IMG/VR virus record: IMGVR_UViG_2909303794_000001
Strand: one strand, 5' to 3'
From: a virus
Lineage: Duplodnaviria > Heunggongvirae > Uroviricota > Caudoviricetes
Length of the DNA stretch: 54,748 nt
The position numbers are program-made. Shown here one piece after another: positions 18,001 to 21,000 of the stretch. How positions within the stretch are numbered: position 1 is the stretch's first letter; every line of letters begins with the position of its first letter.

Positions 18001-21000
18001 GACACGTTCATCTTTGGTCATACGCAAGCAGTGAAACCACTCAAATTTGCCAACCAGATGTATATCGATACCGGCGCAGTGTTCTGCGGAAATCTCACAT
18101 TGATTCAGGTACAGGGAGAAGGCGCGTGGGCATAAGAGAACTAAACCTCACCAAAGAACAGCATGAGTGGCTGAATGGCTGGCTTGAACTGTGGGGCGCA
18201 TGGGTTTATTCAGGTCGTCTGGAAAAGCGCATGAGCAGCGTAATAGCTAAATTCATGGAGAGCGTGGAGCCGGGAAGAGTTATGACAAGGCCAATGTGTA
18301 ATGATGATGATGGAATGTTGATTTCTCAGGTCGTCGATTCCGTCATGTACATTGACAAGAAAGCCTTTGGCATCCTCCTCAGCTACTACGCCCACGGCTC
18401 TTCCAAGCACGCCATTGCATCTTACTATCATAGCGTCGCAAGACCTCGCAAGATGTTATGCCGGGGCGGCGGGCGCATTCAAAAACCATCGCTAGCAACC
18501 TGTCGACGGGAAGTTGACGAAATCCTCAATGCCTCGTTGTTTATGATTTACCCGATTCTGGATAGTGCGTTTAAAAACCGGAAACGTGTAGAGAAAATTA
18601 AGCATGTAGCATAGAACGTGTTGACATCGTTGAGCAAATGAGCAACACTATTCGCATAAGCTGCCGTTAGTGACTCTTAAGTTGCAACGGTGGCTTTTTT
18701 TATTTGGGTCAATCGTATAAAGGTCATTAGAGCCTGTAACTGTTTTTCGTCCATAAATTAACCTTCATTTGATGCTGGATTGAACATATCAAAATCAGGC
18801 AATTACACAAATCTATGTACAGGCTCTTTGTGCCTGACGTTAAAAGATTTTTTACAAGAATAATTTTGAATCAGTGAATTTGTGAACTCTTGCAACATTG
18901 ATTTCGTAACGTTATTATCCTACGCTCGGCCCTTTAGCTCAGTGGTGAGAGCGAGCGACTCATAATCGCCAGGTCGCTGGTTCAAATCCAGCAAGGGCCA
19001 CCAACCGCCATTAGCTCATCGGGATAGAACGCCAGCCTTCTAAGCAATCGGTCACTGGTTCGAACCCAGTACAACGCACCACACTTATTTTCCCTCGCTC
19101 GCTTTTGCGGACCTTTTTTGTATCCGCGCCACGCCCGGCGCATACCAACCACAGAGCCTTTCGGGGGGGAGCTTACGGAGTGGTCAGTGTGACTTTCTCT
19201 GTGGGCAGATCGCTCCCGGGCGTTGGCTCACCCACCCAAAGGAACGTCACGATGTTTGGTATTTTTGGTAAAAAAAGCCCGCAGAGCGGCAACGGAAATT
19301 AAAAAGTTTGAAAAACGCGATCTGGCACAGGCGGTGATTAACGCCGCATACCTGGTGGCCTGTGCAGATGGTGAATGTGAGGCTTCCTAGAAAGCGAAGA
19401 TCGAACAGGTACTGCGTAATCAGCCTGCGCTGTCCGCGTTTACGTCAGAAATTAATGCGATTAGCGCAACCATTATCGGTCAGCTGGATACGAACTTTAA
19501 AATTGGTCGTCGTGCGGCGTTACGTGAGATCGAGGATGTGAAACACGATACGCGTGAAGCGGAAGATGTGCTGGATGTGGCGGTGGCCATTGCGGAGGCA
19601 GACGGCGAAATTGAGCCGGAAGAGCGCAAGGTGCTGGAAGAGATTGCCGGTGTTCTGGGTCTTCGTCTGGAGAATCACCTGTGACGGTAAAACTGCGCCT
19701 GACTGTGGCTGCACTCCTGCTGTTTCTGGTGGTGATGGTGGATTTCACCAGCAGAATCATGTCGGTGCTGGCGGATGGGGTGCTGGTCTGCGGCATTGTG
19801 GTATTGCTGTGGCCGGTGATAAAAAGAAACAGCCTGCATAATGCTTGATTTTTTTGTTTGCTGTTTATTAAAAACACTTCTGCATGGTGAATCCCCCTGT
19901 GCGGAGGGGCAATCAGCGAGTAGGTATATGGGATAATCGCGGATTCAGGTGCTGGTACTGAATTCACCGGGAGGCACCCGGCACCATGCTTTGCCACAAA
20001 AGTGTTATTTCTGTTTTTCTCAAACTATCATCGTTATCCCTTTATTTCCGGCTGCGCATGGCGCGGCCTTTTTTTTACGACCAGCCACTGGCAGATGGTC
20101 ATCCTGTGATTTGATTCCGGTTCCGGCTTTTTAACTCTGTTCCTGTACACGGGAGAAATTCGATGTCGATTAAACATTATGATGTTGTCAGGGCGGCGTC
20201 GCCGTCAGACCTTGCGGAAAAGCTGACACACAAACTGAAAGAGGGCTGGCAGCCGTTTGGTAGTCCGGTGGCCATAACCCCTTATACCCTGATGCAGGCG
20301 ATTGCAGCAGAAGGTGATGTGGTGGTCAGTGGTGCAACTGAGCCGGATTGGTACTACGTCATCGTACTGGCCGGGCAGTCCAATGCAATGGCTTACGGGG
20401 AAGGGCTTCCGCTTCCGGATTCATACGATGCTCCGGATCCGCGCATTAAACAGCTGGCGCGCCGCAGTACAGTTACGCCGGGTGGGGCTGCCTGCAGATA
20501 TAACGATATTATTCCGGCCGACCACTGCCTGCATGATGTGCAGGATATGAGTACGCTGAATCATCCGAAGGCAGACCTGAGCAAAGGGCAGTACGGCTGT
20601 GTCGGCCAGGGCTTACATATTGCCAAAAAACTGCTTCCGTATATCCCGAATAACGCGGGGATCCTGCTGGTACCATGCTGTCGTGGTGGTTCTGCATTCA
20701 CCCAGGGCGCTGAGGGGACATTCAGTGCGGACACGGGGGCCAGCCAGGATTCGGCACGCTGGGGTGTGGGTAAACCGTTATATCAGGACCTGATTGCGCG
20801 CACTAAAGCTGCATTACAGAAGAACCCGAAAAATGTGTTGCTGGCGGTGTGCTGGATGCAGGGAGAGTTTGACATGAGCGCCGCCACCCACGCACAGCAA
20901 CCTGCGCTGTTTACAGCCATGCTGACACAGTTTCGTGCTGACCTCTCCGTGTTTAACGCGCAGTGCCATGGTGGCAGTGCTGCAGATGTGCCGTGGATTT

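Follow-up and report, generated by a model that had tools for sequence, protein, structure and literature searches.

A decayed TerB-family gene, tciA, in the Q-to-lysis cargo slot of a lambdoid prophage, and its candidate pseudoknotted leader RNA

Described occupants of the slot and layout of the locus

In Stx phages, stx2 lies in the late operon and its expression depends on Q read-through. In phage JLK-2012 (JQ347801), a corresponding place, downstream of Q with a tRNA array and ahead of an esterase gene, is held by tciA and tciB, names already in use and borrowed from tciABC of phage P1 ('tellurite/colicin resistance, inhibition of cell division'). A copy of tciA in an E. coli O157 prophage is already labelled a pseudogene in RefSeq (A8L40_RS11390 in NZ_CP015831.1; 'tellurite resistance TerB family protein, internal stop'). 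The domain concerned, PF05099, is also that of TerB of terZABCDE, for which a Klebsiella structure has been solved (PDB 2JXU). A literature search found no functional study of TciA/TciB, of DUF3927 or of a TerB leader.

The locus described here was analysed within a window of 54,748 nucleotides (the whole stretch given as IMG/VR record IMGVR_UViG_2909303794_000001). The upstream landmark of the slot is the plus-strand gene for the late antiterminator Q (18126..18614; PF06530 Phage_antitermQ, E 8.1e-25), followed on the same strand by a tRNA with anticodon CAU (18928..19003; called by ARAGORN, 72.5 bits with the Rfam tRNA model) that is labelled tRNA-Ile (ileZ type) in related records (L001, L002 and phage 2851). 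From 18600 to 19045, a segment comprising the end of Q and this first tRNA, the window is 99.3% identical to the Stx2c phage 2851. By alignment with O157 strain 644-PT8, in which both Arg tRNAs are present, the next plus-strand element (19005..19083) was recognised as a chimeric tRNA-Arg remnant, in which the first Arg tRNA supplies the 5' half and the second the 3' half, joined by a deletion of ~90 nt; it was not called by ARAGORN, which counted one tRNA in the window, and scored 19.7 bits with the Rfam tRNA model, under the gathering score. The array is closed by a terminator-like hairpin and T-run (19097..19119, plus strand; read directly from the sequence) that adjoins the leader and is weakened in the window (GCTCGC/GCGGAC), and a simple terminator scan gave no call there.

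The cargo slot proper contains, all on the plus strand, a leader RNA (copy 1, 19124..19251; cmsearch model R1), the tciA pseudogene (19252..19684; assigned from Pfam and phrog matches, homologue alignment and the RefSeq label) and tciB (19681..19848; DUF3927, PF13064, E 3.3e-17; phrog_1470 'TciB-like', E 5.6e-30). Its downstream edge is a plus-strand prophage sRNA of the STnc100 family, related to PasD (19853..20025; Rfam RF02076, 101.5 bits against a gathering score of 47), after which a terminator scan placed a terminator-like site with a T-run (20050-20068). TerB genes have been noted near PasA/PasC sRNAs, and STnc100 is related to PasD (preprint, bioRxiv 10.64898/2026.05.13.724894). The downstream landmark common to Stx phages is the gene for a NanS-p-like sialate O-acetylesterase (20163..22013, plus strand; Pfam DUF1737, SASA and DUF6645), labelled yjhS or SASA-family esterase in those phages and in O157 genomes. 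The holin (22237-22512) and endolysin (22912-23445) genes come next, and a KilAC antirepressor gene (23719-24414; ANT PF03374, E 2.7e-28) lies between the endolysin and Rz genes.

Homology to phage 2851 ends at window position 19130 and restarts at 19868, and the matching breakpoints in phage 2851 (3121 and 4496) flank stx2A and stx2B, so that the tciA-tciB cassette (about 19131-19867) occupies the exact slot of stx2AB in that phage. A reading made earlier from the window sequence alone (the sequence-only reading) had placed the gene downstream of Q and the tRNA where Stx phages carry stxAB, and this comparison bears it out. The likeness to the stxAB slot of the 2851 and 933W type extends upstream over Q, the ileZ/argN/argO tRNAs and the terminator, and downstream over an STnc100-like region and the nanS-p esterase, whereas the cargo of the window is unrelated to Shiga toxin; upstream of stx2A the leader RNA is absent, and resemblance is limited to the first bases of the leader and the AAAAGGAAC SD. 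With JLK-2012 the window shares gene order, a GTGA overlap and the leader (91.4% identity over 730 nt), but the tRNA arrays differ (Asn/Thr/Gly in JLK-2012, Ile and the Arg remnant in the window). The NZ_CP015831.1 copy is 99.0% identical over 801 nt, and there too an intact DUF3927 gene and then the esterase gene come next; the window departs from it at a few bases, four of them in the tciA body, and by the loss of one Arg tRNA through the ~90 nt deletion.

The small hydrophobic ORF that had been reported downstream is tciB, which runs from GTG 19681 to TGA 19848 (55 aa); its GTG overlaps the tciA stop as GTGA (19681-19684), and a GGAG of its own lies 8 nt upstream. A TerB gene followed by a DUF3927 gene with a stop/start overlap, found in the window at a late-operon site between antiterminator and lysis genes, was also found in JLK-2012, Klebsiella, Pantoea and one Logan contig. 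In the Klebsiella and Pantoea prophages the pair comes after Q, and in Pantoea directly before the lysis genes; the pair on the Logan contig, where Q is not visible, is 52% identical. A consensus scan found no promoter within the cassette, the sole plus-strand promoter-like site lying upstream of the tRNA, and the idea that the cassette is a self-contained moron with its own promoter was therefore dropped.

Family membership of tciA and its lesions

The sequence-only reading had taken the gene to be TerB-like, and HMM search of the repaired translation agreed, with matches to Pfam TerB (PF05099, E 5.9e-15; 56 bits against a cutoff of 24.4, residues 26-138 covered) and, over the full length, to phrog_632 (E 4.5e-69). 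The closest solved structure was Klebsiella TerB (2JXU, E 2.9e-8, residues 14-137 aligned), which has the same domain and two ADGxxxxxE-type motifs. The relation to TerB of terZABCDE is nevertheless distant: the window is without the ter operon partners and has a small DUF3927 membrane protein instead, the phage gene stands in a late-operon setting, and a tellurite role for tciA is putative, the likeness being one of sequence. Among PADLOC defence models the best match was sub-threshold (E 0.0025), and membership of a known defence system is unsupported.

The feature itself is real, but its start had been put at 19253, off by one; the ATG is 19252-19254. Translation from this ATG gives MFGIFGKKSPQSGNGN, with the shift at codons 7-9 and the stop (TAA 19300-19302) after codon 16, as had been read, the A7 tract being at 19270-19276. 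The TerB frame runs over 19256..19684 with a single interruption at TAG 19388-19390, which is GAG>TAG at Glu46, in keeping with the claim that an amber codon had replaced a Glu codon; the original stop is TGA 19682-19684. Alignment to intact TerB-like homologues, proposed earlier as a check, identified both lesions as genuine differences from intact relatives. Where the window has A7, intact relatives have A6; the tciA of JLK-2012 combines A6 with GAG, and GAG also stands in an allele from a dog E. coli that shares 99.3% identity with the window. All aligned homologues from Klebsiella, Pantoea, Salmonella, Serratia, Enterobacter and Erwinia phages begin MFG.F.KK (identity down to 52%), and therefore ATG 19252 is ancestral and A7 is a true +1 insertion, which puts this family-wide conserved start out of frame. 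Among the homologues aligned, N-termini reading MVFLVKK were confined to A7 alleles and called from TTG. The TTG in question (19256) lies 11 nt from the SD, and in the window its frame ends at TAG 19388, codon 45 of that frame, to leave a 44-residue product with an incomplete TerB domain.

Glu46 was invariant in 16/16 full-length homologues and lies within the first of the paired ADGxxxxxE motifs, so that in the window one of the conserved acidic residues is a stop. Neither the ATG frame, which stops after 16 codons, nor the TTG frame, which stops at the TAG, is an intact TerB frame; judged from sequence, the window tciA is a TerB family member by descent and would not be functional. A third lesion, in the conserved leader, is U>G at 19168, which breaks helix c (GGUGAGC in JLK-2012, GGGGAGC in the window) and creates a G7 run (19163-19169).

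The RefSeq pseudogene A8L40_RS11390 has the same A7 and the same TAG codon as the window, and the internal stop is counted there as the only lesion because the gene start is placed at the TTG. A7/GAG alleles are annotated as intact by PGAP with TTG 19256 as their start.

Alleles across prophages and the accounts weighed

Of 5,426 complete E. coli genomes, 575 carry the exact 41-mer of the TAG allele, at 959 places in all; the exact GAG-allele 41-mers were found at 164 and 134 places in the same set. A-tract lengths were counted in an IMG/VR sample of 100 loci and were A6 in 46 (JLK-2012 included) and A7 in 50; with codon 46 added, the sample held 42 A6/GAG, 32 A7/TAG, 17 A7/GAG and 2 A6/TAG loci, and every combination of leader state, A-tract length and codon 46 exists. 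The pseudogene is ordinary and already known, and the amber allele is not rare.

That both tract lengths are common would suit a phase-variable contingency switch, an option raised in the sequence-only reading, in which A6/A7 slippage would switch tciA between ON and OFF, with the OFF phase seen in the window; another homopolymer, the poly-G of the non-coding leader, does differ in length, with 6 to 12 G in E. coli loci that are otherwise alike. The A tract, however, does not behave as a phase-variable locus: its length tracks phylogeny, and none of 37 distinct gene bodies was seen with both lengths. In one locus the tract reads AAAGAAA, seven fixed nucleotides from which slipping back would be hard, A7 is short for efficient slippage in E. 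coli, and the amber codon would leave the ON phase useless in the window allele. We regard a switch of this kind as highly improbable.

Constraint on the gene was compared between clades. Clade-private derived changes were 9N:6S for A7 and 7N:24S for A6 (Fisher p=0.02), polymorphisms were 7N:2S in TAG haplotypes and 13N:41S in the A6 clade (p=0.003), and A7/GAG polymorphism (8N:14S) was not significantly different from that of the A6 clade (p=0.40), all of these being small counts confounded by recombination. Because A7/GAG alleles keep a clean TTG frame and show no significant difference in this ratio from the A6 clade, A7 by itself may lower expression instead of abolishing it. No additional stops or indels were found in the TAG alleles across 405 nt in 8 haplotypes, and tciB was intact, at 55 aa, in 32/32 A7/TAG loci; inactivation is therefore recent or limited to tciA.

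The absence of further stops or indels from TAG alleles could also be read as a sign that recoding sustains the gene (a 'savior indel'), with transcriptional slippage or a +1 ribosomal shift on AAA-AAA-A restoring the ATG frame and near-cognate read-through of UAG-A, the two together yielding a little full-length TciA. In E. coli, termination at UAG is comparatively weak when A follows, and a read-through product may be made in trace amount from the TAG allele. Such a scheme needs two independent low-efficiency events together, and the nonsynonymous excess in TAG alleles noted above speaks against selection on the codons downstream. In favour of recoding, some neighbouring tRNA arrays hold tRNA-Lys(UUU). 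As to the amber suppressor check suggested earlier, a search in cis found none: neither the window nor any of 25 TAG-bearing loci has a tRNA with anticodon CUA, the tRNAs of the latter being limited to CAU, Arg UCG/UCU and Lys UUU, and two of these loci having no tRNA. Intact homologues in E. coli and other genera read from ATG in one frame, have no need of a frameshift and share no conserved stimulator. There is documented precedent for compensatory frameshifting at homopolymers and for ribosomes slipping on A runs (PMC5009743), but the transcriptional slippage which that source cites for bacteria occurs on runs of 9 A or T. The gene has little prospect of being kept alive in this way.

Nor do we give much credence to a split gene, in which a C-terminal fragment (for example a 48-aa ORF from GTG 19538, or a longer restart after the TAG) would function with TciB. 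It is true that the second ADGxxxxxE motif falls in the C-terminal part, that tciB is intact, and that phrog_3920, of 48 residues, matches residues 96-143 (E 1.1e-35), which indicates that such ORFs are often called in phages; phrog_3920 is most simply a gene-caller artefact of the same pseudogene, however, GTG 19538 has no SD in the sequence, constraint is relaxed over the entire tciA body, and we know of no function for half a TerB domain. Some sequencing platforms often misjudge the length of homopolymers, but a sequencing or assembly error behind one or both lesions has a negligible chance of being the explanation, given that A7 recurs in 50 independent loci and that many laboratories have deposited complete genomes with the exact TAG context.

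We therefore prefer, at a probability of roughly 0.9, the reading in which 19252-19684 is a tciA pseudogene in the Q-to-lysis cargo slot, TciA can no longer be made, and the lesions are old, shared and shuffled by recombination. The claim that two lesions mark the decay of a former cargo gene is supported, and with the third lesion and the relaxed constraint the case is stronger than was visible from the sequence alone. Under this decay reading, tciA-tciB would be a two-gene cargo cassette of Enterobacterales lambdoid prophages, lying within the late operon downstream of Q and its tRNAs and upstream of the lysis genes. From an intact cassette, Q-modified RNA polymerase would pass the terminator after the tRNA array and transcribe a structured leader of ~128 nt able to sequester the SD; TciA (143 aa, beginning MFGIFGKK) would be translated, and TciB, a predicted 55-aa membrane protein, would be translated by coupling through the GTGA overlap. 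In the window, the extra A (A6 to A7) would misframe the ATG to give a 16-residue peptide, the sole in-frame alternative, TTG 19256, would meet the amber at Glu46 after 44 residues, and the leader would additionally carry the helix-breaking U>G; expression of tciB may persist through its own GGAG-GTG. Rather than being private to this prophage, the lesions would be old alleles shared and shuffled by recombination among the many lambdoid prophages of EHEC/EPEC lineages.

A covarying leader RNA and the meaning of the locus

Leaders that sequester the SD include translational riboswitches, RNA thermometers (fourU/ROSE, the lambda cIII element) and pseudoknotted translational operators (alpha-operon, rpsO). 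The leader of tciA resembles them in setting a conserved CCUUU opposite the SD AAAGG, in having this pairing at the base of a long helix, and in engaging the SD-AUG spacer in more helices; it differs in matching no Rfam family and in having two mutually pseudoknotted covarying sets, and is known here by sequence comparison. Copy 1 (~128 nt) scored 143.7 bits with R1 (E 1.6e-35) and has helices a, e, b, g, c, d and f, of which g is the pairing of the anti-SD CCUUU with the SD AAAGG. The copy 1 strand had no match in Rfam 15 at E<=1. Thermodynamic folding did not set the window's own leader apart (z -0.79 with flanks, -1.34 alone), and the structure emerged solely from comparison with other genera. 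In the covariation count, 92.7% of cells were paired against 32-43% with partners slid, and the observed values were reached in 0/500 shuffles; these are the unbiased figures, the table of seven helices having been drawn from hand-chosen segments and being biased towards pairing.

A second, divergent copy (23583..23718, plus strand; cmsearch R1) matched over the full model length (71.4 bits, E 7.9e-17) and, in the hand-annotated table, keeps 7/7 helices, six of them (not g) through changed bases. At E<=5 its only Rfam matches were chance-level ones to a snoRNA and SraB, far under gathering scores. It begins directly after a hairpin and T-rich stretch (within 23550-23582) and ends directly before the antirepressor ATG. 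An equivalent hairpin and T-run stood before the leader in 9/10 copies whose upstream sequence was inspected (it was not seen in locus L092), and in most other loci as well. Across copies the leader measures about 115-140 nt, and in every copy except a degenerate one its end coincides with the SD and AUG of a cargo gene in the late operon; outside the window, copies stand before a BRO/antirepressor-like gene, a lipoprotein-like gene and several ORFs without an assigned function.

The leader is open in the ATG frame, and some gene callers produce 189-192-aa proteins that include it; reading it as an N-terminal extension of TciA was rejected because its indels are not multiples of three and its substitutions compensate one another in pairs. 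Covariation supports a pseudoknotted RNA that would sequester the SD. Two helix sets, a + g + c + d and e + b, both covary and cannot be drawn nested, which points to a single compact pseudoknot or else to switching between SD-closed and SD-open forms. That this undescribed pseudoknotted leader represents a new class of translational control for phage accessory genes, answering to a ligand, a protein or temperature, with the U>G of copy 1 as part of the decay, we hold to be an even bet.

For annotation, the TTG "rescue" of A7 alleles by PGAP conceals a frameshift, and phrog_3920 probably represents part of the tciA pseudogene. For the prophages themselves, the stx slot holds other cargo too, and the tciA cargo appears to be decaying in most EHEC/EPEC copies. 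The pseudogene itself is of little consequence, and the leader RNA could weigh more: if it is a true regulatory element, it would be a new cis-regulatory RNA family in a very well-studied phage group, and would point to shared control of accessory genes in phage late operons, the transcriptional setting that also governs Shiga toxin release.

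Late-operon position and identity of the cassette

The window comprises a complete lambdoid prophage from an LEE-type E. coli, with effector genes (NleG, NleA) and a toxin-antitoxin locus (Ibs/Sib) at its right end, and its closest relatives lie in non-O157 EPEC/EHEC-like chromosomes (about 99.3% identity over 18 kb). The Q antiterminator gene (18126-18614, PF06530) is followed by a tRNA with anticodon CAU (18928-19003), a degenerate tRNA-like stretch that is a chimeric tRNA-Arg remnant (19005-19083), a terminator-like hairpin plus T-run (19097-19119) and a GC-rich untranslated leader of 128 nt (19124-19251), which reaches from this hairpin to the ATG of tciA at 19252. 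The second gene, tciB, is a hydrophobic ORF of 55 codons (GTG 19681 to TGA 19848) that overlaps the tciA TGA as GTGA; directly 3' of it lie an STnc100-family sRNA (19853-20025, 101.5 bits) and then a terminator-like site (20050-20068). A 2026 preprint links STnc100 to PasD sRNAs and places TerB genes near PasA/PasC (bioRxiv 10.64898/2026.05.13.724894). The tRNA-Arg remnant, which was not called by ARAGORN and reached an Rfam tRNA score of just 19.7 bits, joins the 5' half of one Arg tRNA to the 3' half of its neighbour (UCG and UCU in O157) through a deletion of about 90 nt between their anticodon arms. Rfam also matched a lambda cIII thermoregulator element (6153-6211, minus strand) and a Sib antitoxin RNA (53614-53756, minus strand), the latter beside the Ibs toxin that relatives annotate; neither is unusual for such a prophage and its insertion site.

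The TciA translation was repaired by deleting one A and translating TAG as Glu. The TerB similarity proposed in the sequence-only reading was present by HMM search (Pfam TerB, E 5.9e-15, 56 bits against a cutoff of 24.4), phrog_632 ('tellurite resistance') was matched end to end (E 4.5e-69), and the closest solved structure was Klebsiella TerB 2JXU (E 2.9e-8, residues 14-137). The small ORF is a DUF3927 gene (E 3.3e-17), equivalent to phrog_1470 ('TciB-like'). The same gene pair is annotated tciA and tciB in phage JLK-2012, with names taken over from phage P1. Because TerB and DUF3927 genes are paired with overlapping stop and start codons after a Q gene in Klebsiella and Pantoea prophages (73-79% protein identity; directly before the lysis genes in Pantoea), and again on a Logan contig at 52% identity (Q gene not seen on the contig), tciA-tciB constitutes a conserved two-gene cargo cassette. 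The names point to the phenotypes of the plasmid ter operon, a role that is putative for intact TciA and TciB; PADLOC returned no significant match.

Placement of the cassette where Stx phages carry stx was correct to the base. In blastn comparison, Stx2c phage 2851 matched the window at 99.3% identity from the Q end through the first tRNA and more weakly through the last Arg tRNA up to 19130, with identity picking up again at 19868; its stx2A and stx2B genes occupy the interval matching 19130-19868. Upstream of stx2A (phage 2851 locus positions 3110-3167), the terminator, the first leader bases (CTGCGCC) and the AAAAGGAAC Shine-Dalgarno sequence are retained without the roughly 100 nt of leader between the latter two, and a deletion within a tciA-type leader may have given rise to the ribosome-binding region of stx2A.

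Lesions of tciA and their distribution

Translation from the ATG yields MFGIFGKKSPQSGNGN and then stops at TAA 19300-19302, and the long TerB-like frame lies at a +1 offset, open from TTG 19256 to TGA 19682-19684 with TAG 19388-19390 as its sole break. The broken frame described earlier is thus read in the sequence, its start at 19253 being one base off. In JLK-2012, tciA has six A residues (A6) at the tract that has seven (A7, 19270-19276) in the window, its ATG is in frame, and the 143-aa product begins MFGIFGKKARR. The start MFG.F.KK occurs in all Klebsiella, Salmonella, Serratia, Pantoea, Enterobacter and Erwinia jumbo phage homologues, read from the ATG in one frame, and in metagenomic homologues down to 52% identity; ATG 19252 is therefore the ancestral start and A7 a genuine +1 insertion. 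An A7 allele with GAG at codon 46, 99.3% identical to the window, is an intact 142-aa protein in RefSeq (beginning MVFLVKK), a call possible only because its start was set at the TTG four bases 3' of the ATG.

Loci were recovered with a pattern permitting any A-tract length, and 50 of the 100 had A7 and 46 had A6. A-tract length tracks phylogeny: none of 37 distinct gene bodies occurred with both lengths, and at one locus (AAAGAAA) the 7-nt state is fixed by substitution. The tract does not look phase-variable, and the suggestion that A7 is a phase-variable switch of tciA was not borne out (a few per cent probability or less).

The second lesion, TAG for Glu, was also confirmed: codon 46 is GAG in relatives, and Glu46, the last residue of the first ADGxxxxxE motif, is invariant in 16 full-length homologues. 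Alleles were counted as exact 41-mers centred on codon 46 in 5,426 complete E. coli genomes. The TAG form was found at 959 places in 575 genomes (up to 5 copies each), the TCC-GAG form at 164 places in 159 genomes and the TCA-GAG form at 134 places in 124 genomes; in RefSeq the TAG form already carries a pseudogene label ('internal stop'), as in O157 strain 644-PT8. Sequencing error as the origin of the lesions is given a few per cent or less. Compensatory frameshifting, documented in general (PMC5009743), combined with read-through of the amber codon is rated no higher; tRNAs with a CUA anticodon were absent from the window and from beside 25 TAG-bearing cassettes, where the arrays carry CAU, Arg UCG/UCU or Lys UUU. 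Some alleles from E. coli O157:H7 chromosomes (proteins P0005 and P0012) carry a two-residue insertion directly C-terminal of Glu46 (EASEKFKAKIE or EASEKVKAKIE), a 6-nt indel adjoining the site of the amber mutation.

The leader carries a third lesion: U>G at 19168 (GGUGAGC to GGGGAGC) disrupts one base pair of a conserved helix (c) and creates a poly-G run (19163-19169). Across E. coli loci (L009, L059, L086, L092, L096) this run ranges from 6 to 12 G; unlike the A tract, it really is hypervariable in the E. coli A7 clade. The leader, A-tract and codon 46 states occur in every combination; the three lesions are therefore old alleles, shuffled by recombination among prophages. Only about 40 of 97 tabulated loci are without any of them. 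In PPompW-type prophages (LC567818-LC567841), cassette homology ends within the leader, after window position 19169, and ISEc20 (IS110 family) is annotated at the break, a further route of cassette destruction.

Private changes in the A7 clade numbered 9 nonsynonymous to 6 synonymous against 7:24 in the A6 clade (Fisher p=0.02), and polymorphisms of TAG haplotypes 7:2 against 13:41 in the A6 clade (p=0.003), with A7/GAG haplotypes in between (8:14, p=0.40); these ratios, from small counts blurred by recombination, point to relaxed constraint. tciB is intact (55 aa) in 32/32 A7/TAG loci. A functional C-terminal fragment of TciA could be read from phrog_3920 (48 aa, 'unknown function'), which matches residues 96-143 and the window ORF 19538-19684; this family appears to be, most simply, a fragment called by gene callers from tciA pseudogenes themselves, and the fragment is assigned a few per cent at most. 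Decay of a former cargo gene is supported by the frameshift, the amber codon at invariant Glu46, the leader lesion and the relaxed ratios. Such broken copies are common, and public genomes already annotate them as pseudogenes.

No promoter-like site was found between the terminator and the ATG. By analogy with lambda and Stx phages, the cassette would be transcribed from PR' only once Q renders polymerase terminator-resistant, for which reason premature stops should have no polar effect on what follows, from tciB and the sRNA to the esterase gene and the lysis genes. Ribosomes initiating at the ATG would make a 16-mer, initiation at TTG (11 nt from AAGGA) would give a 44-mer without a complete TerB domain, and TciB may still be produced through its own GGAG-GTG.

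The leader RNA

The leader is kept 5' of tciA in Klebsiella, Pantoea, Pseudescherichia, Franconibacter and Buttiauxella, and pattern scanning of IMG/VR brought in about 80 more variants; copies measure about 115-140 nt. They include two in the window (19124-19251 and 23583-23718) and those at comparison loci L102, L105, L108-L114, L092, L156, L187, L229, L259 and L022. A seven-helix structure (a-g) was drawn on one Pantoea leader, and 41 distinct leaders, aligned with MAFFT, served to score six of the helices (g left out). Paired cells made up 92.7%, against 32-43% with 3' partners slid by 1-3 columns, and 12 pairs had changed on both sides (0-6 in slid controls). None of 500 shuffles reached the values seen for paired fraction, double changes or covariation score, and the count of further pair types was the only measure below the shuffled mean. 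At one position of helix e, 22 sequences have a U-A pair and 19 a C-G pair, with no sequence unpaired. Of the seven annotated helices, six have covariation support.

Helices e and b were recovered independently by RNAalifold, and a, g, c and d when the Pantoea leader and window copy 2 were each folded alone by MFE (z-scores -4.2 and -3.3). A covariance model made from nested helices scored the tciA leader at 143.7 bits and found the divergent copy 2 at 23583-23721 (71.4 bits, E 8e-17); the 3' end of this copy coincides with the ATG of an antirepressor gene (KilAC) that lies as an insertion between those for endolysin and Rz. Copy 2 retains all seven helices, six (all but g) through altered bases, as in e (CGCAC/GUGCG), b (CCAAAGA/UCUUUGG) and c (GAUGAGCCCU/AGGGUUCAUC), in a comparison of hand-chosen segments biased to pairing; alignment scoring, the covariance-model search, RNAalifold and MFE folding are less biased. 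The late-operon cargo genes at whose AUG the leader ends are varied (one degenerate copy excepted): besides tciA and the KilAC gene, divergent copies stand ahead of one gene resembling BRO/antirepressors, one resembling lipoproteins, and ORFs of 246, 103 and 53 aa. A hairpin plus T-run lies directly 5' of 9 of the 10 copies whose upstream sequence was inspected; the L092 copy lacks a convincing hairpin upstream. A conserved structured leader RNA is well supported.

The strand order is a5'-e5'-a3'-b5'-g5'-c5'-d5'-f5'-b3'-d3'-e3'-c3'-g3'-f3', in which the set {a, g, c, d} crosses {e, b}; the two sets may coexist in one pseudoknot or represent two alternative conformers. In helix g a conserved CCUUU is paired with AAAGG of the Shine-Dalgarno sequence, a predicted pairing by which the leader can sequester it. 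Most Pseudomonas TerB homologues and one from Xanthomonas (L121-L141, 38-46% identity) have another conserved hairpin leader about 60 nt upstream of the start, with consensus GCACCUUGGCGACAGGGUGC and flanks CAUCAC...GGGAUG, which suggests a separate structured element.

Rfam 15 had no family match to either window copy, and a search of a literature library found no description of the leader RNA. That it is new and regulatory is plausible; any novelty here would lie in the leader RNA and not in the pseudogene.
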